64,000 nt of DNA from Bacillota bacterium (GCA_012799185.1 JAAZLS010000078.1:2849-66848), one strand, 5' to 3'; shown: positions 6,786 to 55,227, counted from the first letter of the stretch. Notes: generated from the sequence alone by a model not told the origin. Numbers and translations are program-made.

Positions 6786-7222
6786 ATCGCTATCCCCGCC
6801 TCCTCTAACAGTTGCCGGGCCAATGAATCGGGATAGTCCGCCGCTACTACCAACCGGCAGATTCCAGCGTTAATCAACATTTTAGCACATAGGCTACAGG
6901 GAAAATGGGTGCAGTAGAGGGTGGCCCCCTTAATCGAGACGCCATAGATAGCAGCCTGGATGATAGCATTCTGCTCCGCATGGAGACCCCGACAAAGCTC
7001 ATGCCTCTCCCCCGAGGGAACCTGCAACTTTTCCCGCAGGCATCCCAGTTCCCGGCAATGGGCAAGCCCGGTGGGGCTCCCGTTATAACCGGTGGTAAGC
7101 AGGCGACGATCCTTTACCATTACCGCCCCCACCTGGCGACGGAGGCAGGTGGAACGGGAGGCCACCACCTGCGCAATCTCTATAAAATAAGAGTCCCACG
7201 ATGGTCTGCCCATCCCCGACAC
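6770..7222 (-). CDS. comEB: dCMP deaminase (ComEB-type cytidine/deoxycytidylate deaminase)
   Basis: Zinc-binding CDA motifs HAEQNAI and [14 protein letters not shown]. 150 aa. Confidence 0.85.
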
Positions 7223-7252
7223 CCCCCTTTCCCATTTATAGCATGACGACCG

Positions 7253-8545
7253 CTAGCAGCCCCGCAAGGGGTAGCGCCGGCAAAGATTGGCAACTTGCTC
7301 CTTGATACGGCTTAAACGCCCCGGGTTGTCCCGGTAACGGAGGGCCTCCTGGATTAGCATGGCGATCTCATGGACCTGGTCCGCCCCCATGCCCCGGGAG
7401 GTAATCGCCGGGGTACCTAGCCTTAGGCCACTAGTTATTTTCGGGCTCTCGGGATCAAAGGGGATGGCATTTTTGTTGGCCGTAATATTAACCCGGCCCA
7501 ACACTTGCTCCGCCTCCATCCCGGTTATCCCCCGGGAGCGAAGATCAATGAGCACCAGATGATTATCGGTACCGCCGGCTACCAGCCGGAAACCGTAATC
7601 TTGCAGGGCCCCGGCCAAAACCGCCGCGTTTTCTTTCACCCGTTCTTGATAAAGCTTAAAGGTAGGCTGCAATGCTTCCTTTAGAGCTACCGCCTTGGCG
7701 GCAATGACATGCATTAACGGCCCCCCCTGCAACCCGGGGAAAACCGCCTTATCGATCCGGCGGGCATATTTTGAACGGCAGAGAATCATCCCTCCCCGCG
7801 GCCCCCGCAGGGTCTTATGGGTAGTGGTAGTCACAAAATCGGCACAGGGAACCGGGCTGGGGTGGAGACCGGCCGCTACCAGCCCGGCGATATGAGCTAT
7901 ATCAACCATTAAGTGGGCACCACATTCCCGGGCAATATCGCCAAAGGCAGCAAAATCAATCCGGCGGGGATAGGCGCTGGCGCCGGCAACAATCATCTTC
8001 GGACGAATAGCGAGAGCCTGCCGGCGGACCTCTTCTAAATCGATTCGCTCAGTCTGCCGGTCGACACCATAACTAAAAGCCTTGTAATAAGTTCCCGAAA
8101 GATTAACACGGCTGCCGTGGGTAAGATGCCCCCCATGGGCCAAATCCATCCCTAAAATCCGGTCGCCGGGCTTAAGCATGGCAAAATATACGGCCAGATT
8201 GGCCGGCGCCCCGGCGTGGGGCTGCACATTGACATGTTCCGCCCCAAACAGTTTCTTCGCCCGGGAACAGGCCAGCTCCTCGGCCCGATCCACCTGGAGA
8301 CAACCCCCGTAGTAACGGGCCCCCGGATACCCCTCCGCGTACTTGTTGGTTAAGACCGAACCTTGGGCCTCCAGCACTGCCTTACTGGCAATGTTTTCGG
8401 AGGCAATCATCTCCAGGTGATTCCGCTGGCGATCCAGTTCCGCCTCAATTATTTCCGCTATTTCGGGGTCACTCTGCCGAAGACAATCTGCCCCGACCTG
8501 ATCAGCAACCAGCTTTTGATTCAATGCTTTAACCTCCTCTTTCAC
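7253..8545 (-). CDS. glyA: Serine hydroxymethyltransferase
   Basis: Strong SHMT signature ([58 protein letters not shown]). True start may lie a few codons inside the listed ORF. Confidence 0.95.
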
Positions 8546-8609
8546 AACCAGCAGAGAGATTATCCTGCTGAAGGCCCGGTAATGACCGGGACGGTACTAC
8601 AGGCAGGCT

Positions 8610-9053
8610 CTAACTGGGGTCGGATAACAATTTGATCTTATCGAGTCGCCGCTGGTGCCTTCCCCCCAGGAAAGGGGTACGTAGAAACACCTCTACTATT
8701 TCCAGTGCCAGGCCAGGACCGACTACCCGGGAGCCAAGGGTTAAAATGTTAGCATTATTATGTTCCCGTGAACAGCGAGCAGTATAGGGATCGCCACAGA
8801 GGGCGGCCCTGATCTCCTGAAAACGGTTGGCAACCATTGATACGCCAATCCCGGTGCCACAGATTAAAATCCCAAATTCAAACTCCCCGGAGGCCACTCC
8901 TCGGATTACCGGAAAAGAGATATCCGGATAGTCGGCCGCTCTTTCGCAAAAAGTACCAAAATCAGAATAGGCAATACCTTTGTCTTTAAAATAATCAATA
9001 AGGACCTGTTTTAATGCCAGGCCGGCATGATCGCTGCCCAGGGCTACCCTCAT
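8610..9053 (-). CDS. rpiB: Ribose-5-phosphate isomerase B
   Basis: MRVALGSDHAGLALKQVLIDYFKDKG, an RpiB/LacAB family N-terminus. 147 aa. Confidence 0.9.
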   Translation of the reverse strand: MRVALGSDHAGLALKQVLIDYFKDKGIAYSDFGTFCERAADYPDISFPVIRGVASGEFEFGILICGTGIGVSMVANRFQEIRAALCGDPYTARCSREHNNANILTLGSRVVGPGLALEIVEVFLRTPFLGGRHQRRLDKIKLLSDPS

Positions 9054-9541
9054 TGGTCGGACTCCTCCTCACCAAAATTTAGTGTCTCCTTCCCAGCCAA
9101 TTTGTCAATTACTTTCTCTACCGCTTCCCGTATTTCCTCCAACGTTCGTCTATATATTTCCCGCGAGCCCCCAAAAGGATCTTTTATCCCCGGGGCATCG
9201 CCCCCGATACCGGCAAACTCTTTTAATAAAAACAGTTTTCCGGCGGCCGCCGGATATCGCTCCCCGATCAACCGGCGATGATGTTCCTCCATGGCTAAAA
9301 TAAGGCGGGCCTCCCGAACCAAGGAGGCGGTTAACCGGCGGGGGATATGTTCATCCATGGATAACCCCTCCCGGGATAGTAACTCCCGGGCATAGGGCGA
9401 AGCCTCCTCCTCTACCGGGGCCAGACCGGCGGAGGAGATCTTTATCCTGGGGTCGCCGCCGCTCCGTTCCCATAACAGCCGCGCCAACCCCTCGGCCATC
9501 ACGCTACGGCAGGTATTACCTGTACAGACAAACAAAATCAA
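9050..9541 (-). CDS. ywlE: Low-molecular-weight protein phosphatase (YwlE-like protein arginine/tyrosine phosphatase)
   Basis: P-loop CTGNTCRS at the N-terminus, 163 aa. Sits in the conserved sua5-ywlE-rpiB-glyA arrangement known from B. subtilis. Confidence 0.8.
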   Translation of the reverse strand: MILFVCTGNTCRSVMAEGLARLLWERSGGDPRIKISSAGLAPVEEEASPYARELLSREGLSMDEHIPRRLTASLVREARLILAMEEHHRRLIGERYPAAAGKLFLLKEFAGIGGDAPGIKDPFGGSREIYRRTLEEIREAVEKVIDKLAGKETLNFGEEESDQ

Positions 9542-9553
9542 GCACGCTACCCC

Positions 9554-10471
9554 CTAAACCCGGATGACCCGGGTCGCTAGATTCTGTAACCGGTTCATAA
9601 CCCCCGCCCCCAACCCCCTAGGGGAAATCTCTTCCGCCAAGATTACCCTAACCCCCCGTAACTCACAGCGGCGCAGCCGGCCATAAAGAAGGGGAGCCAA
9701 TCCTATCTTGCCCGACGTAGCACCCTTTGCCCCGGCCGGATTTAACCAGGCTACCGTCATTCCGCGGCCCCGGTAATAGCGAATCAGGGACCAAATTAAT
9801 CTTCGGCGCCGCTCCGGAACCCCCCTTATTAATAACAGCCCACTCCGGGGAAGACAGGGGCGGGGCTTTGTAACCCGGGGGGGCGGGCCCGCCCCCCTGA
9901 ACCGGCCGACGGAGCTTACTGTTATCCCCAGTTCCCGCTCCAGCTCCTCCCGGGAGACCCCTCCCGGCCGGAGGATAACCGGACTACTGCCGCTGGTTAA
10001 ATCAAGCACCGTCGATTCAATTCCCAGGCGGCAGGGGCCCCCGTCAATTACCGCCTCTATTTTCCCGACCAGGTCCGCCAGGACATGGCCGGGGGTGGTG
10101 GGGCTGGGTCGTCCGGAGAGGTTGGCACTGGGAGCTACCAGGGGTACCCCGACGGCACGGATCAGAGCCAGGGCCAGGGGGTGGGCGGGCATCCTTACCG
10201 CTACTGTGGGAAGCCCGGCACTGATCTCCGACAGGAGGGCCGCAGCCCGAGGCAGGACCAGCGTTAAGGGACCCGGCCAGAACCGAGTCATCAGCCGGGC
10301 AGCCACCGGCGGAACAGATGATACCACCTGCTCGAGCTGCTCCCGGTGAGAGATATGAACAATTAAAGGGTTGCCCAAGGGGCGCCCCTTGACGCTAAAG
10401 ATCCGCCTAACCGCTCCCCTACGGTTAATTGCCGCCCCTAACCCGTAAACCGTCTCCGTGGGGAAGGCCAC
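9554..10471 (-). CDS. tsaC: L-threonylcarbamoyladenylate synthase (Sua5/YwlC type, YrdC domain plus Sua5 C-terminal domain)
   Basis: VAFPTETVYGLGA motif, KGRPLGNPLIVHIS, 305 aa with a Sua5 C-terminal domain. The listed ORF begins with GTG directly at the AFPTE motif. The conserved N-terminal helix is encoded in-frame upstream without a canonical start codon (see findings). Confidence 0.85.
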   Translation of the reverse strand: MAFPTETVYGLGAAINRRGAVRRIFSVKGRPLGNPLIVHISHREQLEQVVSSVPPVAARLMTRFWPGPLTLVLPRAAALLSEISAGLPTVAVRMPAHPLALALIRAVGVPLVAPSANLSGRPSPTTPGHVLADLVGKIEAVIDGGPCRLGIESTVLDLTSGSSPVILRPGGVSREELERELGITVSSVGRFRGAGPPPRVTKPRPCLPRSGLLLIRGVPERRRRLIWSLIRYYRGRGMTVAWLNPAGAKGATSGKIGLAPLLYGRLRRCELRGVRVILAEEISPRGLGAGVMNRLQNLATRVIRV

Positions 10472-10621
10472 CAGCCCTCCCCTTAATAAAATTTGGGCCG
10501 CCTCATCGACCGCTGCCCGCCCCCCCCTTAACAGGCGGGTCCCGGCTCCTCTCCCGTCGAAAGGATTTTTAACGGTTTTTTGTTGCCTAGGATCAAAAAA
10601 AATAACTGTATACCTCCAATA

Positions 10622-12292
10622 TTAGGGCCTAAAGCTAACATCCTCGACCACGCCCTCGGCCAGGTTGTTTGCATGGTCGGCTATCCGTTCCAGATTGCTT
10701 AATACATCCAGGTAGATTACCCCGGAGGAGGGGTGGCAACTTTTCTGATTGATCCGCTGGATATGTCGCTGCCGGAGCTCCTTCTCCATTTCATCTATCT
10801 CATCATCATCATCAATTACCTCCAGGGCCAGTGTAAAATCTTCCGATTCAAAGGCCCTAATCGCTTTATTTATAACCGCATCAACCTTGCTATAGAGAAG
10901 TTTTAGCTCCTCCAGGGCCGCCTCTGTAAACGGCAGGCGCTCCTCATACTTTGCTATTGCCAGCTGCAGGATATTCTGCGAGTGATCACCGATCCGTTCC
11001 AGGTCGTTGGCCGCCGACATATATCCGGCTATGCTGTTCGATTGGCGAGGGGTTAAGGAATGCTGGGAGACCTCGGCCAGGTAAACATTGATCTCTTTTT
11101 CCAGGCCATCCAACAGCTCCTCCATTTGATCGATATGCTGAACTTCCCTCAGATCACTATGTAAGAAAGAATGGATTGTCTTACCCAGCATCTCCTGGGC
11201 CAGGGAGGCCATGCGAAGCAGCTCCATCTTGACCCCGCCGATAGCCATGGGTGGGGTTTTTAAGATGCGCTGGTCTAGGTACTTAGGCTTTAATCCAACC
11301 AGGCCCTCCGGGCCGGGGACAATACGGTTTACCAGCCGGAGGAAAACATTAAAAAATAACAGGACGAATGCGGTGTTCGCCAGGTTAAAAATCGTATGAG
11401 CGTTGGCTACCTGGCGGGGGATCGTATGGGCAGTACCTAATACCAGGTCGGTGAAGGGATTAATAAAAATAAGGGCCAGGGCCACCCCGATCACATTAAA
11501 TAATATATGGGCCACCGCCGCCCGGCGGGCGATAATATTGGTCCCGACACTGGCCAACATTGCGGTAATACAGGTCCCGATGTTAGAACCTAAAATAAGG
11601 GGTATCGCAGAGGCTAGTGGAATTAAACCCTGGGTTGAAAGGGCGATAATGACCCCGGCGGTTGCACCGCTGCCCTGGATAACCGCAGTAAAAAGGGCGC
11701 CGGCCAGCACACCCAGTAGGGGGTTGGCACTAAATGTAAGCAAAAAATGATGAAAGGCCGGGAGCTCTTTTAAAGGGATAACGCCGTTAGACATGGTCAT
11801 AATCCCCAGAAACAAGAAGCCAAACCCCAATATGGCCTGTCCCAGGTAACGATAAAGCCGGCGGCGTCCAAAAAAGTTCAGAAACGAACCGATGCCGATA
11901 GCAGGGTAAGCCAGGGCATAGATATTAAAGGATACTATCTGGGCGGTAACGGTAGTACCGATATTGGCACCGATAATCACACTAACTGCCTGGGCAAGAT
12001 TGATCAACCCAGCGTTGGCAAACCCTACTACCATGACGGTGGTGCTGCTGCTGCTCTGGATAAGCACGGTAACAAAAATACCGGTAAGAACACCCATTAT
12101 AGGCCGGTGGGTTAATATCTCCAGGAAACGCCGCAACCGATCCCCGGCCGCCTTCTGCATACCGGAGGCCATCATTTGGATGCCAAATAAAAAAAGGCCT
12201 ACCCCACCGATTAAACTAATAGCAATTTTTATAAACACCCCAACCCTCCCCCCAGACAGTACTAGGAACCCGACTTCAAAAACCTTAACCAT
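10622..12292 (-). CDS. Na/Pi-cotransporter family protein with C-terminal PhoU-like domain
   Basis: N-terminal duplicated Na_Pi_cotrans hydrophobic repeats (GANIGTTVTAQIVS... / GSNIGTCITAMLAS...). C-terminal soluble helical PhoU-like domain with repeated ...ERIGDH.../...ERIADH... motifs. Confidence 0.8.
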   Translation of the reverse strand: MVKVFEVGFLVLSGGRVGVFIKIAISLIGGVGLFLFGIQMMASGMQKAAGDRLRRFLEILTHRPIMGVLTGIFVTVLIQSSSSTTVMVVGFANAGLINLAQAVSVIIGANIGTTVTAQIVSFNIYALAYPAIGIGSFLNFFGRRRLYRYLGQAILGFGFLFLGIMTMSNGVIPLKELPAFHHFLLTFSANPLLGVLAGALFTAVIQGSGATAGVIIALSTQGLIPLASAIPLILGSNIGTCITAMLASVGTNIIARRAAVAHILFNVIGVALALIFINPFTDLVLGTAHTIPRQVANAHTIFNLANTAFVLLFFNVFLRLVNRIVPGPEGLVGLKPKYLDQRILKTPPMAIGGVKMELLRMASLAQEMLGKTIHSFLHSDLREVQHIDQMEELLDGLEKEINVYLAEVSQHSLTPRQSNSIAGYMSAANDLERIGDHSQNILQLAIAKYEERLPFTEAALEELKLLYSKVDAVINKAIRAFESEDFTLALEVIDDDDEIDEMEKELRQRHIQRINQKSCHPSSGVIYLDVLSNLERIADHANNLAEGVVEDVSFRP

Positions 12293-20221: not shown

Positions 20222-20467
20222 TTAAAAAGCCTCCTCATAGCATGGATTAATTGTTTGCGAATTTGTGTTTTGCCGAAACAGGGGAGTCGGCCGTTTAAAG
20301 CAAATAAAAGCCGGTAGAAGAACATATGGGTCGGACCGCTTACTGTGAAAAGTTCGCTACAAATATGATAATCCCTGCTACCGGCAATAAAATACTTGGA
20401 GTCGCTTATTTTTTTTCCCTATATTACCCATAATACCTGGGAGTAGATCTTGACAGGGAGCGGGCTA

Positions 20468-22477
20468 ATGAAAGCAAGAAAGGTTCTCCTTCTATTTAGC
20501 ACTATTCTATTGCTGGCGCTATCCGCAGGTTTTAATTTTTTCGTTTATAATCTAGTCTATTCTAGCCCGATCGAATCGGTCGAAATTCCTTTGACCACCC
20601 GTATTTACGATGACCGGGATCAGCTTTTAGCGGTCCGCTATATTGAAAACCGGTTGGAGATCCCGCTGGAGGAGATCCCCGTGCCGGTGCTCAAGGCCAC
20701 CCTGGCTATCGAAGATCACCGATTTTACCAGCACCGGGGGTTTGATCTTTCCGGCTTCGGAAGGGCCTTGATCAATAACTTGAAGCAGAAACGCTTCTCC
20801 CAGGGGGGTAGCACCATTACCCAACAGCTGGCTAAAAATCTTTACCTCTCCAATGACCGGACCCTAATCCGTAAAATTAAAGAGGCTGCCTATACGATCC
20901 GCCTGGAACACTCCTATGACAAGGATGAAATTTTAGAACGGTACCTTAATACCATTTACTACGGTCACTCGGCCTACGGCATTGAGGCGGCCGCCCGGAC
21001 CTATTTTGCCAAAAGTACCGCTGAACTATCCTTAGCGGAGGCCGCTCTCCTAGCCGGTCTACCAAAGGGCCCCGCGTACTATTCGCCTTTTATCAACCCG
21101 GAGGCGGCCCGGGAGCGTCAGAAAAATGTCCTGCAGGCAATGAACCGGGCGGGTTATATCACCGCCCAGGAGAAGGAGAAGGCCCAGGCAGAAAATATAG
21201 ACTACCGGGAACCGGCACAACAAGGGCAAGCCTCCTACTTCGTAGATTATCTTATAAATATCGAGCTGGCCCGGTATTTTAACAACTCAACCGATGATAT
21301 CTACCGGAGCGGCCTGGAGATCTATACTACCCTGGATGCATCGATGCAACAGGCAGCCGAAGAGGTCGTAGCCCGCATACCTCGGCAGCGGATCGATCCC
21401 CAGGGCTGTTGCCAGCCCCAAGGAGCCCTGGTGGCCCTAGATCCGACCAACGGCTTTATCAAGGCCCTGGTAGGGGGGCGGGATTTTTCAGAAAGCCAGT
21501 TAAACCGGGTCTTTTCCCGCCGTTCGCCCGGTTCAGCATTCAAACCCTTTGTCTATGCCGCCGCCCTGGAAGAAGGTAAAAAGGCCACCACGACCTATCT
21601 CTGCGAGCCGCTCTCCCTGGAGGAGCCCTCCGCAGGCAAACCCTACGAACCGACCGATTACGGGGGGGGGTTCCATAATCGCGAATTGACAATCCGGGAG
21701 GCTATTGCCTCCTCCTGTAACCTGGTAGCCATCAAAACCTTTTTGGATATTGGACCGGAGAAAACGGTAGAGATGGCCTCCCGCCTGGGTATTTTAAGTC
21801 CGCTAAACGGTTACTATTCCCTACCCCTGGGAACAGCAGAGGTTAGTTTGCTTGAGTTAACCGCCGCCTTTGCCCCTTTTGCCAATGGGGGAACACGGGT
21901 GGAACCGGTGGCCATTCGCCGTGTGGTTGATTCCAAGGGAAATATATTACTGGAAAACCGGCCCTGCCGAAAAAAAGTGCTGGATGAAAAGGTGGCCTTT
22001 ATCCTAACCGATATGTTGACCGGCGTGCTGGCGGAGGGGGGAACCGCCGAAAAGGCCGGCCCTATTTTGCACCGGCCGGCGGCGGGAAAATCGGGAACCT
22101 CCCATGCCGGGATAAATGCCCACATGATCGGCTATACCCCCGAGCTATTGGCGGGTCTTTATATCGGTGACGATTTTGAGCAGCCCCTGGGCACCACCGG
22201 GGGAGAGCTGGCAGCCCCCCTCTGGGCCGAGTTCATGGAGAATGCCCTGGCGGGAGAGACCCCCCGGGAATTCCCTCTACCACCGGGGGTAGTCCGGAAA
22301 ACTATCTGTCCCCATAGCGGCTTATTGCAATCCCCCAACTGTAAGGGGCACGGCAAGGAAGAATATTTTATCGCCGGGACCGCTCCTACCGAAGAATGTA
22401 GCTTCCTAACCTGCCCCCACTGCCCTCATGATAGCTGGTGGCCCTGGCTACCCGACCGGTTCCGCCGCCAGCCCTAA
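20468..22477 (+). CDS. Class A penicillin-binding protein (PBP1A-type transglycosylase/transpeptidase) with Cys/His-rich C-terminal tail
   Basis: GT51 motifs (EDHRFYQHRGFD, GGSTITQQLAKN), transpeptidase SxxK (SAFKPF), N-terminal TM. GGGAG RBS 7 nt before ATG 20468. The last 55 aa contain 7 Cys and several His (CPHSG...NCKGHG...EECSFLTCPHCPH). Confidence 0.9.
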   Translation: MKARKVLLLFSTILLLALSAGFNFFVYNLVYSSPIESVEIPLTTRIYDDRDQLLAVRYIENRLEIPLEEIPVPVLKATLAIEDHRFYQHRGFDLSGFGRALINNLKQKRFSQGGSTITQQLAKNLYLSNDRTLIRKIKEAAYTIRLEHSYDKDEILERYLNTIYYGHSAYGIEAAARTYFAKSTAELSLAEAALLAGLPKGPAYYSPFINPEAARERQKNVLQAMNRAGYITAQEKEKAQAENIDYREPAQQGQASYFVDYLINIELARYFNNSTDDIYRSGLEIYTTLDASMQQAAEEVVARIPRQRIDPQGCCQPQGALVALDPTNGFIKALVGGRDFSESQLNRVFSRRSPGSAFKPFVYAAALEEGKKATTTYLCEPLSLEEPSAGKPYEPTDYGGGFHNRELTIREAIASSCNLVAIKTFLDIGPEKTVEMASRLGILSPLNGYYSLPLGTAEVSLLELTAAFAPFANGGTRVEPVAIRRVVDSKGNILLENRPCRKKVLDEKVAFILTDMLTGVLAEGGTAEKAGPILHRPAAGKSGTSHAGINAHMIGYTPELLAGLYIGDDFEQPLGTTGGELAAPLWAEFMENALAGETPREFPLPPGVVRKTICPHSGLLQSPNCKGHGKEEYFIAGTAPTEECSFLTCPHCPHDSWWPWLPDRFRRQP

Positions 22478-22512
22478 ACTGACCCCTTCCTAGTCAACCG
22501 TCCCTTATATGC

Positions 22513-22522
22513 CGTAATTACG
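22513..22522 (+). promoter_or_regulatory. 10-bp perfect palindrome CGTAATTACG, candidate enhancer (UAS) for the sigma-54 promoter
   Basis: Perfect dyad about 65 bp upstream of the -24 element. Enhancer-binding proteins typically bind dyads 70-150 bp upstream. Confidence 0.25.
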
Positions 22523-22586
22523 TCACCCGTCCGCCGGTTTCCAGTCCAGAAGGGCGACCGGAGCCGGTTTACAGCCCCTTTTAACC

Positions 22587-22602
22587 TGGCATGCAACTTG
22601 CA
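22587..22602 (+). promoter_or_regulatory. Sigma-54 (RpoN) -24/-12 promoter
   Basis: TGGCATGcaacTTGCA matches the TGGCAC-N5-TTGCW consensus with correct GG/GC spacing. It is 55 bp upstream of the ATG at 22657 and in the same locus as a sigma-54 activator gene (27081..28544). Confidence 0.7.
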
Positions 22603-22656
22603 GCTTATATAGTTGGAAGGTTCCCAATGACCTAAAAATTGAAAGGAGGCTTTAAA

Positions 22657-23712
22657 ATGGCTAATGGATGCCAGTTTTGGAAGGACTATGATTCCATCGG
22701 AGGCGCTGTCTCTTACTGTGAGCTGGCAGCTTTTAACCGCCCGGTTAACCCGGATTTTTTAGAACGGATCGGTTGCACAGCAGATAAAAGGAGGCAATGC
22801 TTGGGGGCAATGGAGCTAAATATCGGTACGGGGGCGGTCCCTACCCCCAAAGCCCCGGTATCTTGCGATCCCCCTCCCGAAATTGCCCGGACCTGCGTAG
22901 CCGTGGCTACCAACAAGGCATCTACCGGCGCCCCGGCGCTACAGGTATTATCCCTTCTGGCCGGGGCCTATATCGCCATGGGAGCGATCATGTTTACCAT
23001 TATCACCAATGATATCTCTTCAATCGTCGGTGATGGGCTCACCCGATTAATCGGCGGTATTGCATTCTCCCTGGGACTGATCCTAGTCGTCCTGGGGGGG
23101 GCGGAGCTCTTTACCGGAAACAACCTGCTGGTCACAGGATATCTAGAGAAAAAAGTGACCCTTAAACAGGTCTTATCCAACTGGGGTTGGGTGTACAGTT
23201 TCAACTTTATTGGTTCGCTGCTGTTGGCAGTCCTATTCTTTTATTCCGGTATCTGGAAAGCCAATGGGGGGGCAATCGGTCTAAGGGCGATCAATATCGC
23301 CTTTGCCAAGAGCTCTTTAACCTGGACTGAGGCCCTATTTAGAGGGATTCTCTGCAACTGGCTGGTCTGCCTGGCCGTCTGGCTATCCTTCGCCAGCAAG
23401 GATGCCATCGGTAAAATTGTTGGAATCATGATCCCCATCGCCGCCTTCGTAGCAGCCGGTTTTGAACACTCCGTGGCCAACATGTACTTTGTTCCGATGG
23501 GCATGTTTCTGAAAGGCCAGGCTTTTTTTGAAACCCTTCTCTCCCCGGCGATCCTGGAGGGATTGACCTGGCAGGCGTTCTTTATAAACAACCTGATTCC
23601 GGTTACCATCGGCAATTTGATCGGGGGAGTTCTATTTGTAGGCGTTTTTTATTGGAACGCTTACCTGCGCCCGGCCGCCCCCGGAAGAATGATTGCCAAC
23701 GGCCGGCTCTAG
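22657..23712 (+). CDS. FocA-like formate/nitrite transporter (FNT) family channel with ~90-aa N-terminal four-cysteine domain
   Basis: The C-terminal ~250 aa are unmistakably FNT (GAELFTGNNL, GILCNWLVCLAVWLSFASK, AAFVAAGFEHSVANMYFVPMG with the conserved His). AAAGGAGG RBS 7 nt before ATG 22657. The N-terminal 90 aa carry 4 Cys (C-x15-C-x18-C-x7-C) and are paralogous to the next gene. Confidence 0.85.
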   Translation: MANGCQFWKDYDSIGGAVSYCELAAFNRPVNPDFLERIGCTADKRRQCLGAMELNIGTGAVPTPKAPVSCDPPPEIARTCVAVATNKASTGAPALQVLSLLAGAYIAMGAIMFTIITNDISSIVGDGLTRLIGGIAFSLGLILVVLGGAELFTGNNLLVTGYLEKKVTLKQVLSNWGWVYSFNFIGSLLLAVLFFYSGIWKANGGAIGLRAINIAFAKSSLTWTEALFRGILCNWLVCLAVWLSFASKDAIGKIVGIMIPIAAFVAAGFEHSVANMYFVPMGMFLKGQAFFETLLSPAILEGLTWQAFFINNLIPVTIGNLIGGVLFVGVFYWNAYLRPAAPGRMIANGRL

Positions 23713-23744
23713 TCCTCTAGCATTTTTCAAAAGGAGGTAACCTG

Positions 23745-23972
23745 ATGGAGAAACTAGTAAAATGTAAGTACTGGAAGGAGTACCTGGGATTAAACGGGTG
23801 GGTCATGTTCTGCAGCGCCGGTGCCTTTGACCAGATTTTTACCCGCGAAGAGGCGGAAAAAATTGGCTGCACCGACCGGCAAAGGGCCAAGTGCCACCAT
23901 ATCATGGAGAGCAACCTGGGATTTGGCCTAGTCCCCGGGATCAAGGAGGCCATCGTTGAGGAGGCCAAGTAA
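23745..23972 (+). CDS. Small four-cysteine protein, paralog of the FNT N-terminal domain
   Basis: 75 aa, AAGGAGG RBS. Aligns without gaps to residues ~4-62 of the upstream FNT protein (CxxWK[DE]Y...G.V..C...AF.........E.IGCT....R..C...ME.N.G.G.VP), about 40% identity with all four Cys conserved. Confidence 0.6.
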   Translation: MEKLVKCKYWKEYLGLNGWVMFCSAGAFDQIFTREEAEKIGCTDRQRAKCHHIMESNLGFGLVPGIKEAIVEEAK

Positions 23973-24015
23973 CAGTTACCGGGCCGGGGACCCGCCGCCC
24001 GGGAAGAGATCGCCT

Positions 24016-24059
24016 AAAAAATCGGCCCCTACCCAATAACAGGGGGGTGCCGATTTTTT
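24016..24059 (+). terminator. Intrinsic terminator after the small Cys4 gene
   Basis: AAAAATCGGCCCCtacccaataacaGGGGGGTGCCGATTTTTTAC. GC stem with T-run. Confidence 0.55.
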
Positions 24060-24162
24060 ACAATAAAATAAATTGAGAAAAGGAGGAATCTGGGCCACAA
24101 TTACAGAATAAGCTACTGCCGGGCAACGCCTATTTTCCGATAGGAGGTCGGGTCTATTAGGG

Positions 24163-25311
24163 ATGTATATCAGTAAATTTGTATCCCCGGAAATTATATT
24201 TGGTAAGGGCTCCCTTAACCAGATAGGAGAGTGCTGCTTCCGGCTGGGGGCAACCAAGGTCTTTTTAGTAGCCGACCGGGGAATTATTGATTGCGGCTGG
24301 GTGGAGAAAGCCCTCCCCTACCTGGAAAACAGCCGCCTCCAATATTACACCTGGTCTAATTTTTCAGCCAACCCCAGGGATTTTGAGGTGGAAAAAGGGG
24401 CGCTCTTATATTCGGAAGAGGGATGCGATGCGGTACTGGCCATTGGTGGAGGAAGCGCCATCGACGCCGCCAAGGCCGTGGCTACCCTGGCTAGCAATGG
24501 AGGCCGGATCCAAGAGTACGAGGGGATAGACCTGATTACAAAGCCGTTACCCCCAATTATCGCCGTTCCCTCTACCGCCGGTTCCGGCTCCGAGGTATCC
24601 CAATTCTCCATCATTGCCGATAGTAAACGGAAGATTAAAATGACTATAATATCTAAATCCCTGGTTCCCGATATCGCCATCTCCGATCCGATCATCCTTT
24701 CTACCGTCAATAGCCGGTTGACCGCCCATACCGGGATGGAAGCCTTAAGCCATGCGATCGAGGCGTTTGTCTCCCTGGCTTCAACCGACCTCACCGATGT
24801 TCATGCCCTCCATGCGATTAAACTTATTGCCGGCAACCTGAGAGCCTCCGTAGCCAGCCAGGTTAATGAGGGGGCCAAGGTGGCCATGGCCAAGGCCAGC
24901 CTTCAAGCCGGACTAGCCTTTTCAAATGCTGTGCTAGGACTGGCCCATGCCATGTCCCACCAGGTGGGGGGCCTGCTAGATCTACCGATTGGCGAAACCA
25001 GCGCTATCTTACTGCCAGCGGTAATGCGCTTTAACCTTATCTCCTCCATCGATAAGTTTGCAGAGGTCTGCCGAGCCATGGGGATAAAGGATAACCAGAT
25101 GACCAATCGCCAGGCCGCCGAAAAAACTATCGATATGGTTCAACAGCTGGCCGAAGATGTGGGAATACCACCCGGCCTATCCCAGCTAGGTCTTTCGGAG
25201 GAGGTTATACCGGAACTAAGCCGGAACGCGATTAAGGATGCCTGTTTTATTACCAACCCCCGAGATGCCACGGTAGAAGATATCATGGAAATATTTCACC
25301 GGGCCTTTTAA
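24163..25311 (+). CDS. Iron-containing (group III) alcohol dehydrogenase
   Basis: GGGSAIDAAKA NAD-binding motif and the metal-binding His cluster (HAMSHQVGG). 382 aa, similar to 1,3-propanediol dehydrogenase and lactaldehyde reductase. Confidence 0.9.
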   Translation: MYISKFVSPEIIFGKGSLNQIGECCFRLGATKVFLVADRGIIDCGWVEKALPYLENSRLQYYTWSNFSANPRDFEVEKGALLYSEEGCDAVLAIGGGSAIDAAKAVATLASNGGRIQEYEGIDLITKPLPPIIAVPSTAGSGSEVSQFSIIADSKRKIKMTIISKSLVPDIAISDPIILSTVNSRLTAHTGMEALSHAIEAFVSLASTDLTDVHALHAIKLIAGNLRASVASQVNEGAKVAMAKASLQAGLAFSNAVLGLAHAMSHQVGGLLDLPIGETSAILLPAVMRFNLISSIDKFAEVCRAMGIKDNQMTNRQAAEKTIDMVQQLAEDVGIPPGLSQLGLSEEVIPELSRNAIKDACFITNPRDATVEDIMEIFHRAF

Positions 25312-25344
25312 CCGGTAAGCAGCGCGAAAAGGAAGCGATGAAGA

Positions 25345-27084
25345 ATGATTATTTCCAACAAAAAAGAGCTCATAGAGAAATTAACCGGTATTCATAGCTC
25401 TAAAAAATCCTACTATGTAGAACTTAAGAAAAAAATATCAGAGATCACCAGGCAAAATTTACAGCTGGATATTATTAACCAGCTTACCAGAAGTATCGGG
25501 GTCGATATGACCCTGGAACAGATCCTTAGAAATATTATTCCCCGCCTCCAGATCTTAATCTCCTTTGACTTGCTAAATTTATACATAATTGAACAGGATC
25601 GGCTGGCCGATCAGTCGACATTTTTGGTGGAGGACAATCATGATAACGGCGGAGCTACCATTAAGTACAGCCAACAGAGAAAGCACCCGGAGTTAAAGAA
25701 GCGCCGGCTCAGCACCGCCTTAAAGGAGGCTGTGGCCAAGAAAAAGCCGCTTCTCCGACAGCGCCGGAAAGAGGAAGATCCCGGAGAGGGGGAACAGGCA
25801 GGCCCCCCGGGAATTGTCTCCACCATCCTTATCCCGCTAACGGTAAAAAACAAGACCATTGGGGTCCTAGAACTGGCCAGCAAGTCCAATTTTCATGAAC
25901 GGGAGCTCCCCTTTTTATCCCAGGTTGCCGACCAGCTGGCGGTCTGCCTGGAAAATGTCCGTCTCTATAAAGAGGTGTGGCAACATAAGCAGGAATGGGA
26001 GACCACCTTCTCAGCTGTAACCGATCTCTTAATGTTTATTGATAACAACCATGAAATATCTAGGATTAATCGGGCTGCCCAGGAGTTCTTTGCCCGTCGG
26101 GAAAAAGATATTTTAGGTCAAAAATGCTACCGTCTGCTCTACGGCCGTGAGACAAAATGCAATCCCTGCCTGGCAGACCAGGTAATAAAATCCGGGCAGA
26201 CAGCCTACTTACAGTCGAGGACCCGCTACCATCGGGTGCTGGATATCTTTGCCTACCCGGCTTACACCGAGCGCAATGCTCCGCTGGGGGTAACCTATTA
26301 TGCCAAGGATGTAACCCGGTTTGTCGATTCAATAAAATTTGTATCCTTGGGGGAGATGTCGGCCGGGGTGTCCCATGAGCTAAATAGCCCCCTTACCGCC
26401 ATTGTTGGCAACTCCCAGTTGCTGCTTCGCGAGACCCCTTCCACCAGTCCCCACTACCAGCTAATTAAAGATATTAAATCCTGCGGGATGCGCTGCCAGC
26501 GGATAATCCAAAACCTGTTGACCTTCTCCCGCCAGGACGAATATTCATTTGAGGAGATTAACCTGAACCGGGTCGTAGAACAGGCCCTCTCCCTGGTCGC
26601 CTACCAGATAGAAAAAAATAAAATTAAAATATCTAAAAAACTGTACCCCTCTCTCCCCCCGGTGCTGGGCAATGCCCAGGGGCTGGAACAGATCGTGATC
26701 AATTTGATGCTAAACGCCAAAGATGCCATCGATGCCCAGGTTACGGGGAACGGTAATGGGAAAAAAGGGTTAATTGACATTAAAACCCGGGTCCAGCCGG
26801 ATAAATTTGTAGCGGTCGATATCATTGATACGGGCTGCGGCATTGACCCCTCCTCTATCCCCCATGTATTTAATCCTTTCTATACCACCAAGCGCACCGG
26901 GCAGGGGACCGGGCTGGGTCTCTCCGTAAGCTTGGGTATCGCCCAGGCACACCGGGGCTTTATCGATGTCGACAGTGTTCCCGGTAAGGGCAGCCGATTT
27001 AGCCTGATTATTCCCCTGGATGAACCGGAAACAGGAGAGGAGGAAGCGGTCGGTAAGGCCGCCGGGGGAGGTGAAGAAAAATGA
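25345..27084 (+). CDS. Cytoplasmic sensor histidine kinase (GAF-PAS-HisKA-HATPase)
   Basis: No TM segments. GAF-like region (ILIPLTVKNKTIGVLELAS...), PAS with Cys cluster (CYRLLYGRETKCNPC), H-box GEMSAGVSHELNSPLTAI, G-boxes DTGCGI and GTGLGLSVS. Confidence 0.85.
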   Translation: MIISNKKELIEKLTGIHSSKKSYYVELKKKISEITRQNLQLDIINQLTRSIGVDMTLEQILRNIIPRLQILISFDLLNLYIIEQDRLADQSTFLVEDNHDNGGATIKYSQQRKHPELKKRRLSTALKEAVAKKKPLLRQRRKEEDPGEGEQAGPPGIVSTILIPLTVKNKTIGVLELASKSNFHERELPFLSQVADQLAVCLENVRLYKEVWQHKQEWETTFSAVTDLLMFIDNNHEISRINRAAQEFFARREKDILGQKCYRLLYGRETKCNPCLADQVIKSGQTAYLQSRTRYHRVLDIFAYPAYTERNAPLGVTYYAKDVTRFVDSIKFVSLGEMSAGVSHELNSPLTAIVGNSQLLLRETPSTSPHYQLIKDIKSCGMRCQRIIQNLLTFSRQDEYSFEEINLNRVVEQALSLVAYQIEKNKIKISKKLYPSLPPVLGNAQGLEQIVINLMLNAKDAIDAQVTGNGNGKKGLIDIKTRVQPDKFVAVDIIDTGCGIDPSSIPHVFNPFYTTKRTGQGTGLGLSVSLGIAQAHRGFIDVDSVPGKGSRFSLIIPLDEPETGEEEAVGKAAGGGEEK

Positions 27085-28544
27085 TGACAAAGGCCCAATT
27101 TTTAGTGGTGGACGATGAACCGGAGGTCTGTAATTTTTTTGCATACCTGCTCAAAAGCAGGGGCGGCCGGGTAGAGACCGCCCATACGGGGAGAGAGGCC
27201 TACGCCCGGTTGAATCGTTTCAAATTTAATGTGGCCCTAGTTGATCTTAAGCTTCCCGACAGCGACGGCCTACAGATACTCAAAAAGATAAAAGAAAAAC
27301 AGCCGGAGTGCGAGGTCATCATCATTACCGGCTACTCCACGGTGAAATCGGCGGTAGAGGCGATACAGCTGGGTGCTTTCGATTACGTGGAGAAACCCTT
27401 TGCCGACATCGAAGAGATGGAAGATTTAATTAAAAAGGCGCTGAAGGCCCGGCAAGAGGTCGACAGGCTAAGCTCCCAGGAGGAGTACGGGTTTGTAGTC
27501 GGCCGTAATCCTAAAATGATCAGCCTGGTTACAGCCGCCCGCAAGATCGCCAAAAAGAATATCACCGTCCTGATCCAGGGCGAAACCGGTACCGGCAAAG
27601 AGGTCCTGGCCCGTTATATCCATGCAGTAAGCCACCGTAGCGATCGCCCCTTTTTGGGATTCAACTGCGGGGCATTTACAGAAACCCTCCTGGAAAGTGA
27701 ACTCTTTGGCCATGAAAAGGGGGCTTTCACCGGGGCCACCAGTAAAAAAAAGGGGATCTTTGAACTGGCGCATAAGGGAACCCTGTTCCTGGATGAGATC
27801 GACTCCGCCTCCCCGGCGATCCAGATAAAATTACTACGGATCCTGGAAACCGGGGAGCTATTGCGAGTCGGAGGGGAGGAGATCAGCAAGGTAGATGTGC
27901 GAGTAATCACTGCTACCAATGCGGACCTGGCCTGCAAGGTTGAAAATCGGACGTTCCGCGAGGACCTGTTCTATCGCCTGGATGTAGCCTCCCTGGTCAT
28001 TCCACCGCTAAGGAGGCGGGCAGAGGATATCCCCCTTTTCGTCCACTATTTCCTCTCCAAGGAGACAGGAGAATCGGAACCGACAAAACAGTTCACCGAT
28101 CAAGCCATGGAACTGCTCGTAAAATATCCCTGGCCCGGCAATATCCGGGAGCTGGCAAATACTGTCGCCCAGTCGGTACTATTGGCCAAGGGGCCCCGGA
28201 TCACGGTCTCGGACCTGCCGCCCAAGATGCAACCGCCCCGGGAAAAAGAACCGGAACAATCCGTCGTAGAGCTACCCAAAGAGCCGGAACGTTGGCCGGA
28301 CCACCCCCACCAACAAGAGCTGCTACAGCTATCCCGCCGGTGGGAGGAACAGCTGCTAGAGATAGACCTGCGAAAAGGATTCAACTTTACCGGGTTCAAA
28401 GATGATTTTAAACACTGGAACCGGCATCTACTGTTGACAATCGTTAAACAGGCCCTAAAAACCACCTTTGGAAACCAGGTGAAGGCGGCCGAGCTGCTGG
28501 GCATTACCCCCCGGGCACTGCGCTACTATTTAAAAGAACAGTAG
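27081..28544 (+). CDS. Sigma-54-dependent response regulator (NtrC family enhancer-binding protein)
   Basis: Receiver domain (LVVDDE...VDLKLPDSDG), AAA+ sigma-54 interaction domain (GETGTGKEVLARYIH, ESELFGHEKGAFTGA GAFTGA motif), C-terminal Fis-type HTH (AAELLGITPRALRYYLK). Start overlaps the kinase stop (ATGA). Confidence 0.92.
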   Translation: MMTKAQFLVVDDEPEVCNFFAYLLKSRGGRVETAHTGREAYARLNRFKFNVALVDLKLPDSDGLQILKKIKEKQPECEVIIITGYSTVKSAVEAIQLGAFDYVEKPFADIEEMEDLIKKALKARQEVDRLSSQEEYGFVVGRNPKMISLVTAARKIAKKNITVLIQGETGTGKEVLARYIHAVSHRSDRPFLGFNCGAFTETLLESELFGHEKGAFTGATSKKKGIFELAHKGTLFLDEIDSASPAIQIKLLRILETGELLRVGGEEISKVDVRVITATNADLACKVENRTFREDLFYRLDVASLVIPPLRRRAEDIPLFVHYFLSKETGESEPTKQFTDQAMELLVKYPWPGNIRELANTVAQSVLLAKGPRITVSDLPPKMQPPREKEPEQSVVELPKEPERWPDHPHQQELLQLSRRWEEQLLEIDLRKGFNFTGFKDDFKHWNRHLLLTIVKQALKTTFGNQVKAAELLGITPRALRYYLKEQ

Positions 28545-52800: not shown

Positions 52801-53421
52801 TTACCTTAGTCCAATAACTATTTGCCGCCGGGGTTCTTCCCCCTTGCTGTAGGTGTAGACCTCTCCATGCTCTTTCAAAGCAAGATGAATGATCCGCCTA
52901 TCTTGGGGGGTCATCGGTTCAAGGAATACCTGGCGGCGGGTAGCCAGAACCCGTTCAGCTGCCTTCAGGGCAAGCCGGTTGAGAGTCCGTTCCCGGCGCT
53001 GCCGGTAATTCCCCACATCCATGATCACCCTTTTCCTAATCCCGGGAAACTGGCGGCGTAAGATACTGTTAACTAAATACTGCATTTCATTTAATGTTCT
53101 TCCCCGCCTGCCGATTAAGATTCCGCTGCTAGAATCATTAATCCTGACATAATAATTTTCTTCACTGCTGGTTACCTCTACCTCTCCACCCAACTCCATC
53201 AAAAACAGCATTTTCTCTATAAATTTTTGCAGGTATTCTTCCGCTTCATATCGCTTTGTCACCAACACCCGGGCATCCTTACTGCCAATAATCCCAAACA
53301 GCCCTTGGTTTGGCTCACAGAGCACCTCTATCTGCGCGTTGCTCTTTTTAATTCCCAGCTGGTCTACAGCCTTATTTACCGCCTCTTCAACTGTTCGACC
53401 GGTAACTTCCATCGCTTTCAT
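52801..53421 (-). CDS. jag: RNA-binding protein Jag/KhpB (KH and R3H domains)
   Basis: C-terminal R3H (GEVYTYSKGEEPRRQIV), KH-like central domain. Conserved position after yidC. Confidence 0.85.
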   Translation of the reverse strand: MKAMEVTGRTVEEAVNKAVDQLGIKKSNAQIEVLCEPNQGLFGIIGSKDARVLVTKRYEAEEYLQKFIEKMLFLMELGGEVEVTSSEENYYVRINDSSSGILIGRRGRTLNEMQYLVNSILRRQFPGIRKRVIMDVGNYRQRRERTLNRLALKAAERVLATRRQVFLEPMTPQDRRIIHLALKEHGEVYTYSKGEEPRRQIVIGLR

Positions 53422-54135
53422 CTATCCCCGCTTTTCCTTTCTCCTTGGTTTCTCCTTCCCTTTCACCGGCTTCGGCTTCAACTCCTCTTCGCCATTCTCC
53501 TTTCGGACGACCACGTAATGCTGCCCCAACGAAAACAGGTTGTTCATGACCCAATATAACACCAACCCCATAGGAAATTTAAAGCTTAAATAGGTGATCA
53601 GTGCTGGCATCATGTATAACATTATCTTTTGATTGGGGTCAGTCATGGTTAGCCGCTGGTGCAAAAAAGTAGTAACCCCGGATAAGATTGGAAAGATGAA
53701 ATAAGGATCGGGGGAAAGCAGATCGCCCCAGACGGTAAATGACGGAAAAATGTAGGAGCTAAAGTTAGGAATATCTAAAATGCCAAACTTGGCCGGATTA
53801 CTTAACAGCCGGAAAATACCGATTAAAATTGGAAACTGTATTAAGAGGGGAAGACAACCGGCCATAGGGTTAACCTTATTTTCCTTTAATAGCTCCATCA
53901 CCGCCTGGTTTTGCTTTTCTTTATCGTTTTTATACTTTTCTTGTAGTCTTTTGATCTCCGGCTGAACGGCTTGCATTCGTTTCGCCGATTGAATTTGCTT
54001 GTTATTAAGTGGGAAAGTAACTAACTTTACCAGTATTGTAAGGATTATAATAGCTACTGCATAATTTTGCCCACTAAAGTTCAGATAGATAAATCCCAGT
54101 GCAGTATTAAAAAAACCAGCAATCGCATCCAACAT
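53422..54135 (-). CDS. yidC: Membrane protein insertase YidC (short Firmicute SpoIIIJ/YqjG type)
   Basis: VTFPLNNKQIQSAKRMQAVQPEIKRLQEKYKND. Multi-TM C-terminal half with a basic tail. Confidence 0.9.
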   Translation of the reverse strand: MLDAIAGFFNTALGFIYLNFSGQNYAVAIIILTILVKLVTFPLNNKQIQSAKRMQAVQPEIKRLQEKYKNDKEKQNQAVMELLKENKVNPMAGCLPLLIQFPILIGIFRLLSNPAKFGILDIPNFSSYIFPSFTVWGDLLSPDPYFIFPILSGVTTFLHQRLTMTDPNQKIMLYMMPALITYLSFKFPMGLVLYWVMNNLFSLGQHYVVVRKENGEEELKPKPVKGKEKPRRKEKRG

Positions 54136-54146
54136 CGTTCTCCCCC

Positions 54147-54858: not shown

Positions 54859-54959
54859 CTAAAGCCCCTTCTCCGTTTCTATTTCTTTCAGGGTTAAACA
54901 TAGAAAATTATACCTTAATAAGAGGGACAATGCAAGGAACCGGGAAGGAAACCGGGTAT

Positions 54960-55215: not shown

Positions 55216-55227
55216 GAGGTTAAGTCA

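Follow-up and report, generated by a model that had tools for sequence, protein, structure and literature searches.

Fe-alcohol dehydrogenases (Fe-ADHs) are best known as metabolic enzymes, yet in Pseudomonas one of them takes part in signaling. The genes ercA/yiaY and ercS/yiaZ are co-cistronic there, and alcohol-induced expression requires both (PMC12997753). How the dehydrogenase and the kinase communicate has been a question since 2010-2013, and it was partly answered in 2025, when YiaY and YiaZ of Pseudomonas putida were found to form a physical complex (PMC12551699). The predicted contact involves the first 14 residues of YiaY and the N-terminal end of YiaZ, and signaling is abolished when these YiaY residues are truncated or when H281 is mutated (H281A); close homologs of the pair have been stated for about 20 Pseudomonas genomes only (PMC12551699). 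Desulfovibrio vulgaris has an Fe-ADH in DVU2396, and its sigma-54 regulator DVU2394 binds the adh-hdr-flx operon (PMC3333781, PMC10920352). In the mno operon of Mycobacterium smegmatis (msmeg_6242-6238) an Fe-ADH gene directly precedes mnoS, and its product (MSMEG_6239) is regarded as a 1,3-propanediol dehydrogenase under MnoSR control (PMC11303327). For E. coli FocA, a channel of the FNT family, the cytoplasmic partner PflB controls translocation (PMC9380403). Here we analyze a 64-kb stretch of DNA from a Bacillota bacterium (JAAZLS010000078.1:2849-66848 of GCA_012799185.1; 64,000 nucleotides, hereafter the window), in which an ErcA-like dehydrogenase, a histidine kinase, and a sigma-54-dependent activator are encoded beside an FNT channel carrying a four-cysteine (Cys4) domain.

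The plus strand of the window between 22480 and 28544 carries five genes, for the channel, a 75-amino-acid (aa) protein, the dehydrogenase homolog, the kinase, and the activator. On the comparisons presented below, we consider it somewhat probable that they form a two-operon cassette in which the last three products make up an ErcA/YiaY-YiaZ-type three-component sensor whose output runs through sigma-54. A hairpin built on a 15-nt inverted repeat (93% complementary) lies between the channel gene pair and the remaining three genes, and the five therefore fall into two transcription units; folding of 23970-24070 gives -40.1 kcal/mol (z = -2.7), and the terminator scan also caught the minus-strand side of the hairpin. 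Orthologous loci were gathered by means of the channel protein, and 12 independent loci were used for promoter comparison. Background rates of DNA motifs were taken from 2.7 Mb of strand sequence, and the kinase motif was searched in 2.7 million six-frame residues.

All five genes occur together in at least three unrelated flanks (loci L001; L002-4; L005-7), as well as in L008, L010, and L012, and seven contiguous cassettes, differing in their flanks, link the kinase and activator genes to the channel. In L092, 4 kb of inserted DNA (6943-10909) carries a HepT/MNT toxin-antitoxin pair, a gene for a protein with MutS domain V, and small open reading frames (ORFs); the insertion parts the channel pair from the dehydrogenase-kinase-activator triad, precisely at the boundary of the two operons. 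The triad also occurs without the channel in two loci, L096 and Desulfoscipio geothermicus (L095); in the latter it adjoins genes for an aldehyde:ferredoxin oxidoreductase (AOR) and a second Fe-ADH, with -24/-12 elements 5' of both. The split in L092 and the channel-free triads therefore assign the dehydrogenase to the regulator unit and not to the regulated unit. In related Bacillota loci the dehydrogenase is never found apart from the kinase and activator, whether the channel is present or not. The initial annotation of this DNA had treated it as an intervening gene outside a self-contained kinase-activator-channel module: its presence and position stand, but its role as a bystander does not. 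The module itself is supported as a prediction by linkage, promoter, and dyad, though less so in its two-component form, since the dehydrogenase belongs to the triad.

As a separate observation, L096, where another triad lies, has two -24/-12 elements on the minus strand (8636 and 8777) before an MTTB-type methyltransferase/corrinoid-protein operon, beside which lies a gene for a separate PAS-type sigma-54 activator.

The dehydrogenase homolog has the Fe-ADH fold (PF00465, 4.1e-50; PF25137, 6.1e-57) and keeps the GGGS motif at residue 95. Its best NCBIfam model is ErcA (NF041833; 467.5 bits over residues 3-382 of 382, with the next model at 342), a score below the curated ErcA cut-off of 550, so we regard the protein as a relative of ErcA and not as an equivalog. 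The same model comes first for all seven kinase-linked dehydrogenases compared (window, L005, L092, L095, L096, and two actinobacterial plasmids; 460-492 bits), 125-150 bits ahead of the next one; the best model of the putative target ADH of Desulfoscipio is of the YiaY/threonine-dehydrogenase type. The gap to the kinase gene is 33 nt, and the two genes have the same order in every related locus.

We take the metal ligands of these enzymes to be Asp194, His198, His263, and His277 (Z. mobilis ADH2 numbering). When the window protein is aligned to Z. mobilis ADH2 and DhaT, these positions hold E193, H197, H262, and I276, and the canonical quartet is incomplete. All seven contiguous cassettes combine glutamate with Ile or Met, as do 94-95 of the 124 nearest homologs; more distant triads keep D and H, and with them all four canonical ligands. 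Even so, its 71-89% identity makes the dehydrogenase the best conserved of the cassette genes. Conservation despite the ligand change fits selection for something other than turnover, and in this clade the protein is probably not a normal enzyme.

The N-termini of the dehydrogenase and of the kinase each carry a motif. The window dehydrogenase has MYISKFVSPEIIFG, and the corresponding sequence of kinase-linked dehydrogenases is xISKFxxPEI(I/V)FG in Bacillota, those of Actinomycetota having ...KFHAPEIVFG; the motif xISKFxxPEI(I/V)FG is missing from the catalytic-type paralog of Desulfoscipio, the sole paralog compared. The partner kinases have LTGxxSxKxSYY at their start, and a search of the six-frame residues with the pattern LTG[ILVM]x[ST]x[KR]x[STN]YY gave 15 matches, all of them at the N-termini of kinases that follow ErcA-like dehydrogenases. 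Among them is the MnoS-type kinase of Tsukamurella, which is of the HisKA_3 class and has a LuxR-type regulator as partner. The best plasmid matches of the window dehydrogenase come from Tsukamurella (47% identity) and M. chubuense (45%), both ErcA-like by NCBIfam and in an mno-type architecture. Their kinases carry LTGxRSGKxxYY/FY at the N-terminus, followed by a GAF domain in Tsukamurella, with no GAF hit reported for M. chubuense.

The kinase contains GAF, PAS, HisKA, and HATPase domains by Pfam and, from its hydrophilic N-terminus and the cover of these domains, appears to be cytoplasmic. The unusual cysteine cluster that had been pointed out in its PAS domain is indeed there (CYRLLYGRETKCNPC, kinase residues 261-275), and the pattern C-x11-C-x2-C is kept in every ortholog examined, including those of Desulfoscipio (L095) and L096. 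In an alignment of seven orthologs this Cys3-PAS domain is strongly conserved and the GAF domain is variable; no close relative of the PAS was found among solved structures. The kinase of L012 (10734-11918) has lost the whole GAF domain (window residues 37-209), its N-terminal motif joining the Cys3-PAS directly, so the GAF domain seems dispensable. The best NCBIfam models of kinase and activator are AtoS and AtoC, with scores below the equivalog cut-off in both cases. In L095 (10165-11840) the kinase is called as two overlapping ORFs, one with the N-terminal motif and GAF (202 aa) and one with PAS, HisKA, and HATPase (356 aa), through either a frameshift or a natural split.

A three-component sensor is likelier than a plain two-component system because the dehydrogenase is ErcA-like, always accompanies the kinase and activator, carries the N-terminal motif, and has a degenerate metal site; judged by these sequences, its role as a co-sensor of the kinase is a slightly better than even prospect. 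If instead the system were of the plain two-component kind, which we find rather unlikely, the kinase would sense through its GAF or Cys3-PAS domain, and the dehydrogenase would be a metabolic enzyme sharing the operon, as MSMEG_6239. Such an arrangement would suit the PAS domain and its C-x11-C-x2-C cluster being the best conserved part of the kinase, the retention by the dehydrogenase of GGGS and three ligand positions (E, H, H) able to bind metal, the four canonical ligands of the distant triads, and the treatment of the mycobacterial equivalent as an MnoSR-regulated 1,3-propanediol dehydrogenase (PMC11303327). Yet a purely metabolic enzyme would not be expected to exceed the other cassette genes in conservation. 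The protein also keeps an N-terminal motif that the single catalytic-type paralog compared does not have, it pairs with private-motif kinases across two kinase classes and two phyla, and it has lost a His ligand under strong purifying selection. In addition, Desulfoscipio has a separate catalytic-type ADH beside the triad as the apparent target.

The channel that the three-component sensor would control belongs to the FNT family (PF01226, 6.5e-81, 271.7 bits). It scores above the cut-off of the NCBIfam fnt model (TIGR00790; 252.4 bits against 232.3), which places it at the family level, and below the equivalog cut-off of FocA (TIGR04060; 249.7 bits against 290), and we describe it as FocA-like without assigning it as FocA. 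Its closest relative in the PDB is Vibrio FocA (1e-53), followed by the hydrosulfide channel (1e-34) and the nitrite channel NirC (5e-24). The pore residues E150, T153, K218, N234, E270, H271, S272, N275, and N320 are invariant in 30 homologs and correspond to D/E88, T91, K156, N172, E208, H209, S210, N213, and N262 of FocA, all nine being kept. The core spans approximately residues 75-340 and is modeled by AlphaFold2 (AF2) with a predicted local distance difference test score (pLDDT) of 80-90; it is preceded by an N-terminal extension of 70 residues and a Pro/Ala-rich linker. The AF2 model of the N-terminal domain (pLDDT 53-64) was discarded.

This extension contains the Cys4 domain, with the invariant residues C5, W8, Y11, S13, G16, C21, A25, L35, G39, C40, R45, and C48, and it is 38% identical to the 75-aa protein encoded downstream (E=2e-17). 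The small protein adjoins the channel in all cassette loci as well as in L092 and L093. It is modeled with a pLDDT of 90.7 as a beta-hairpin plus helices, and its best Foldseek match in the PDB has E=3, i.e., no fold match. No Pfam or NCBIfam model matches the Cys4 domain. With no curated family or solved fold matched, it is a previously undescribed domain. Among 1.84 billion representative proteins, a profile search recovered only 41 clusters, mostly small stand-alone proteins, the others being channel fusions, two helix-turn-helix (HTH) fusions, and one chain with both paralog types in tandem. The latter kinds are represented by P0253, P0255, and P0270, which comprise a 173-aa tandem of channel-type and small-type Cys4 domains and fusions to HTH_17 or HTH_3. 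This distribution suggests that Cys4 may be a portable sensor or interaction module. The two paralogs may interact at the cytoplasmic face of the channel pentamer, which we infer from their co-transcription, the tandem fusion, and the analogy to the control of FocA by PflB.

Several other candidates were set aside. Matches starting at residue 11-40 in Spirochaetales, deltaproteobacterial, and other loci, which would have carried Cys4 beyond Bacillota, are not hit by the Cys4 profile, so these N-terminal extensions are unrelated. P0281 (643 aa) proved a false lead, its six "Cys4" stretches belonging to a DUF4214 repeat protein, and P0288 (Cys4 plus an activator fragment) looks like an assembly chimera. 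The FNT channels P0113-P0120, a further group with about 45% identity to that of the window, are fused to a response-regulator receiver domain (PF00072), an arrangement that would put the channel under direct phosphorylation control.

As to what the channel carries, formate has about an even chance of being the substrate. The wiring may also be as we describe and the physiology different, with hydrosulfide, nitrite, or another anion as the substrate and the cysteine-rich parts responding to sulfide, redox state, or metal. The FNT family includes the hydrosulfide and nitrite channels to which the window channel is related (1e-34 and 5e-24), the FocA equivalog cut-off is not reached, three separate conserved cysteine clusters occur in the cassette, and Cys4 is fused to HTH domains in the manner of a sensor module. 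We consider this decidedly unlikely all the same: FocA is clearly the nearest relative (1e-53) with its nine pore residues kept, the triad elsewhere stands beside alcohol or aldehyde enzymes (AOR and ADH in Desulfoscipio, NDMA-methanol dehydrogenase in Actinomycetota), and the neighborhoods examined hold no sulfite or nitrite reductase genes.

The proposed link between the sensor and the channel operon is the activator, which has the domains of an NtrC-class enhancer-binding protein: a receiver domain (REC, PF00072, 6.6e-27), an AAA+ domain (Sigma54_activat, PF00158, 1.1e-66), and a Fis-type HTH (HTH_8, PF02954, 3.2e-08) at 28476-28538. Its GAFTGA motif was correctly noted in the initial annotation (residue 214, nt 27720-27737), and no other protein of the 64-kb window has one. 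Translational coupling to the kinase is likewise borne out by the overlapping stop and start codons (ATGA, 27081-27084).

The same annotation had proposed as a plausible enhancer a 10-bp palindrome, CGTAATTACG, at 22513-22522, 65 bp 5' of the -24 element. Comparison of loci agrees with this and extends it, the palindrome appearing as the core of a conserved, enhancer-placed 18-bp dyad (22509-22526) whose center lies about 95 bp 5' of the predicted transcription start. The aligned upstream regions give the consensus GTGACGTAWWTACGTCAC, to which L009 has no mismatch, L008 and L010 have one, the window has two, and L001, L002, and L012 have four; L005 has a 17-bp variant. Each of L001, L002, L005, L008, L009, L010, L012, and the window has one copy, 70-150 bp 5' of the -24 element, and in the 64-kb window the dyad is the sole site with four mismatches or fewer. 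It was not found in L090, L092, L093, L095, or L096. Loci bearing the dyad share the activator recognition region KAAxLLGITPRALRYYLKE; in L095 and L096, where there is no dyad, the HTH of the activator departs from the cassette consensus, and L095 (Desulfoscipio) has a different recognition helix. The activator HTH thus co-varies with the dyad across the aligned loci, and the adjacent activator probably acts through this site.

A further dyad stands apart from this pattern in L088 (a Syntrophaceticus-type contig), where a near-perfect copy (GTGCCGTAATTACGACAC, 9286-9303) lies within a longer palindrome (GATAAGATGTGCCGTAATTACGACACATCTTATC) 3' of the channel gene (8001-9134). About 430 bp beyond it is a second -24/-12 element (TTGGCATGATATTTGCT, 9717-9733), identical to that of the channel, and the sole called gene near the two is a 54-aa ORF at 10185.

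It is very unlikely, in our view, that a sigma-54 activator encoded elsewhere in the genome serves the channel promoter, with the triad controlling other genes and its adjacency reflecting shared physiology. This would agree with the Desulfoscipio triad regulating other targets and with L088, L090, and L093, which keep the -24/-12 element without an adjoining triad, so those loci must be served by another or a distant activator. It agrees poorly with the seven contiguous cassettes in differing flanks, with a dyad unique in the window and an HTH that co-varies with it, and with the lack within 64 kb of any other GAFTGA protein and of a -24/-12 element before any other nearby gene.

The target of the adjacent activator would be the promoter of the channel operon. 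The sequence TGGCATGCAACTTGCA at 22587-22602 on the plus strand has one mismatch to TGGCAC-N5-TTGCW, with GG and GC 10 nt apart, and lies 55 nt 5' of the channel ATG (22657), toward which it is oriented; orthologous channels begin at the same M-A-N-x-C position as the window gene. A near-consensus -24/-12 element, properly spaced and oriented for the FNT gene, had been claimed at 22587-22602, and this is confirmed. Statistics inside the window alone are weak, as 14 matches with at most two mismatches are observed against 20 expected. Only two sites have at most one mismatch, and the other (14202, minus strand) was dismissed as a second sigma-54 promoter as it sits within an ORF. The decisive evidence is comparative. 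In the 12 independent loci, scanned from -130 to -30 of the orthologous gene, a -24/-12 match is present in every case, with differing spacers and the form TGG[CT]A[CT]-N5-[TCA]TGC, 60-105 nt 5' of the start codon. The background rate is 0.0205 per kb-strand, which corresponds to 0.002 expected per locus for the 100-nt interval. We accept the element because of this conservation and not because of the window statistics; the conserved promoter also backs the proposal that it drives the Cys4-FNT unit. It is very likely, from these comparisons, a working sigma-54 promoter, with a predicted transcription start near 22612. No Rfam match with E <0.9, and hence no riboswitch or leader RNA, was found in 22300-25400.

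A sigma-70-type promoter (TTGGCA/CTGGCA, 16 nt, TATAGT-like) can scarcely be credited as the conserved element, even with CTGGCA-16-TATAGT at 22586-22613 in the consensus scan and an A/T-rich TATA-like stretch after TTGC in several orthologs, given that TGGCA is found in 12/12 loci and TTGACA never, that TGC always follows the TGGCAY hexamer by exactly 5 nt where a sigma-70 spacer could vary, that the invariant GG and GC would land in its -35 region and spacer, that the GC-rich loci L092 and L093 keep -24/-12 without a TATAAT-like hexamer, and that the neighboring genes include one for a dedicated sigma-54 activator.

The sensor operon appears to be controlled otherwise. As the initial annotation had it, there is no convincing -24/-12 element before the dehydrogenase (none with two mismatches or fewer in 23973-24162), and no dyad was found there either. 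A motif pair, AAAGGAWTT-N11-15-RNAGAAT, recurs 5' of the dehydrogenase in L001, L002, L005, L010, L012, and L096 and is absent from L095. It is a candidate promoter of the sensor operon (the RNAGAAT part being TTACAGAAT in the window), resembling in some loci the Bacillus sigma-H consensus: a sigma-H-like reading fits L005, L012, and L096, and the window spacing is irregular (15 nt). In L012 a copy, TTACAGAATAG, is also present upstream of the channel promoter.

Taken as a mechanism, the three-component reading would run as follows. From the sensor operon (24163-28544), the dehydrogenase would dock on the kinase by way of the N-terminal motifs conserved in the two proteins, as for YiaY-YiaZ, and would report the state of a short-chain alcohol, an aldehyde, or NAD(H); that the signal is alcohol-related we hold only tentatively. 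In this clade signaling would proceed without normal catalysis, because the fourth metal-ligand His is replaced by Ile. The kinase would then phosphorylate the activator, by the established chemistry of its family, and the activator would bind the dyad (22509-22526) and remodel sigma-54 RNA polymerase at 22587-22602, with ATP-dependent opening of the closed complex. The predicted transcript comprises the Cys4-FNT channel (22657-23712) and the Cys4 paralog (23745-23972) and would end at the hairpin (24015-24060). The channel would most likely pass formate or another small monocarboxylate from anaerobic alcohol oxidation, and its cytoplasmic Cys4 domain, together with the soluble paralog, may form a metal- or redox-dependent gate or docking site.

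Several points weigh against this reading, besides the ErcA score below the cut-off. Its regulatory wiring is a prediction from sequence comparison. Glutamate is still able to bind metal, and some activity may therefore remain in the dehydrogenase. By DhaT numbering, H281 of YiaY would correspond to I276; as H281A loses signaling, a natural Ile at this position would be hard to square with an identical mechanism. The N-terminal motif pair was defined on sequences from Bacillota and Actinomycetota, with Pseudomonas and Desulfovibrio compared by description. Many sigma-54 activators use two or more sites, and promoters of the cassette loci have a single dyad. The loci in which the channel has no adjoining triad (L088, L090, L093) keep the sigma-54 promoter with no dyad upstream, and L092, with its triad 4 kb off, has no dyad either; the pairing of activator and site is therefore supported for the clade of contiguous cassettes only. 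No RpoN box was found in the 64-kb window or the collected loci, which is uninformative for the whole genome. Finally, the assignments of the channel substrate and the Cys4 ligand are guesses.

Table 1. Features of the Cys4-FNT channel and sensor operons, in window coordinates.
Feature	Position	Strand	Basis or detail
18-bp dyad ATGCCGTAATTACGTCAC, predicted upstream activating sequence	22509..22526	n/a	comparison of loci
Sigma-54 -24/-12 element TGGCATGcaacTTGCA	22587..22602	+	GG 22588-22589, GC 22600-22601
Ribosome-binding site AAAGGAGG of channel gene	22642..22649	+	read from sequence
Cys4-FNT channel gene	22657..23712	+	Pfam, NCBIfam, PDB relatives
Cys4 domain at channel N-terminus, residues 1-62	22657..22842	+	invariant C5, C21, C40, C48
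75-aa soluble Cys4 protein, C7/C23/C42/C50	23745..23972	+	paralog of channel N-terminal domain
Hairpin with A-run and T-run, bidirectional intrinsic terminator	24015..24060	+	inverted repeat, fold
Motif pair AAAGGAGGA ... TTACAGAAT, candidate non-sigma-54 promoter	24078..24109	+	recurrence in loci
ErcA-like Fe-alcohol-dehydrogenase homolog	24163..25311	+	NCBIfam, ligand alignment, N-terminal motif
Soluble histidine kinase: N-terminal motif, GAF, Cys3-PAS, HisKA, HATPase_c	25345..27084	+	Pfam, 7-ortholog alignment
Kinase N-terminal motif LTGIHSSKKSYY, predicted dehydrogenase docking site	25381..25416	+	pattern search
C-x11-C-x2-C cluster in PAS, candidate metal or cofactor site	26125..26169	+	ortholog conservation
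NtrC-type sigma-54 activator	27081..28544	+	Pfam, NCBIfam

The window also carries dnaA, dnaN, gyrB, and gyrA and is therefore chromosomal DNA, with the cassette about 30 kb from the origin. In the region 52801-63292, jag and yidC are on the minus strand and dnaA/dnaN/gyrB/gyrA on the plus strand, and the strand switch at about 54-55 kb marks the region of the replication origin. The cassette is on the plus strand (20-28 kb) amid minus-strand genes, and it is therefore probably transcribed head-on to replication. Upstream of the channel, a PBP1A-like protein (20450-22477) has a cysteine-rich C-terminal tail (CPHSG...NCKGHG...ECSFLTCPHCPH; window 22300-22477), and a like tail is present at the same place in L001, as judged from the DNA by eye. 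Proteins identical to those of the window are present in a metagenome-assembled genome labeled "Firmicutes bacterium", and biogas-fermenter metagenomes are the source of several related loci.

The promoter call alone is ordinary, one more sigma-54 promoter with its activator. The dehydrogenase-kinase pair appears far wider than the published Pseudomonas-only view, and its signature lets such systems be found anywhere. The broader proposition, which we put forward with less than even confidence, is that the Pseudomonas complex is one branch of an old cross-phylum three-component sensor, here with a pseudoenzyme co-receptor that controls a Cys4-FocA-like channel. If this is true, the sensor would be recognizable by the paired signature xISKFxxPEI(I/V)FG in the dehydrogenase and LTGxxSxKxSYY in the kinase, and its outputs would be interchangeable: a sigma-54 activator in Bacillota and, by the literature, probably in Desulfovibrio, and a LuxR-type regulator in Actinomycetota and Pseudomonas. 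The soluble Cys4 paralog would dock on the new metal- or redox-binding fold of the channel, and both expression and gating of the channel would be tied to alcohol or redox status. The ligand-deficient clade is a natural experiment on whether signaling needs catalysis. The locus also contributes an FNT channel that bears an undescribed Cys4 module, of which there is a soluble paralog, and it is a candidate for coupling the export of formate or acid to alcohol sensing in uncultured digester Bacillota.

The closest described counterpart is ErcA-ErcS/YiaY-YiaZ (PA1991-PA1992; PP_2682-PP_2683), in which an Fe-ADH protein is likewise co-cistronic with a soluble PAS kinase, and the window dehydrogenase scores best on the ErcA model, with an end-to-end alignment to its 382 positions. 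It differs from ErcA in having E and I at two metal-ligand positions and a score under the equivalog cut-off. Unlike ErcS/YiaZ, the window kinase is not a hybrid and has GAF and Cys3-PAS domains. The regulator is a sigma-54 activator in the same operon, whereas in Pseudomonas it is LuxR-type and encoded elsewhere, and the target is an FNT channel instead of PQQ (pyrroloquinoline quinone) dehydrogenases.

In organization the triad also resembles DVU2396-DVU2395-DVU2394 of Desulfovibrio vulgaris Hildenborough, where, by gene numbering, an Fe-ADH (Adh2) and a sigma-54 response regulator share a locus. DVU2395, which lies between DVU2396 and DVU2394, is presumably a histidine kinase. This likeness is taken from descriptions and not from sequences, and the Desulfovibrio dehydrogenase is not discussed there as a co-sensor. 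DVU2394 binds a direct repeat, unlike the dyad of the window, and its target is the adh-hdr-flx operon of ethanol metabolism (PMC3333781, PMC4641369, PMC10920352) and not a channel. The mno/MnoS-MnoR system (msmeg_6242-6238, 6236) shares an Fe-ADH gene immediately upstream of the kinase, in an alcohol-oxidation operon. Unlike the window kinase, the MnoS-type kinase is of the HisKA_3 class without PAS, the regulator is LuxR-type, and no sigma-54 activator accompanies the pair.

On the output side, the channel shares with FocA the pentameric FNT core with T91/H209 and seven other conserved pore residues. By comparison with E. coli FocA, its N-terminus is a Cys4 domain on a Pro/Ala linker with a soluble paralog that is, as predicted, co-transcribed, no pflB is nearby, and transcription is predicted to be sigma-54-dependent. 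As a regulatory pair, the kinase and activator are built along the lines of NtrB-NtrC and AtoS-AtoC, with REC, AAA+ (GAFTGA), and HTH_8 domains and a dyad about 100 bp 5' of a -24/-12 promoter; what sets them apart is a third, dehydrogenase-like component encoded first in the operon.

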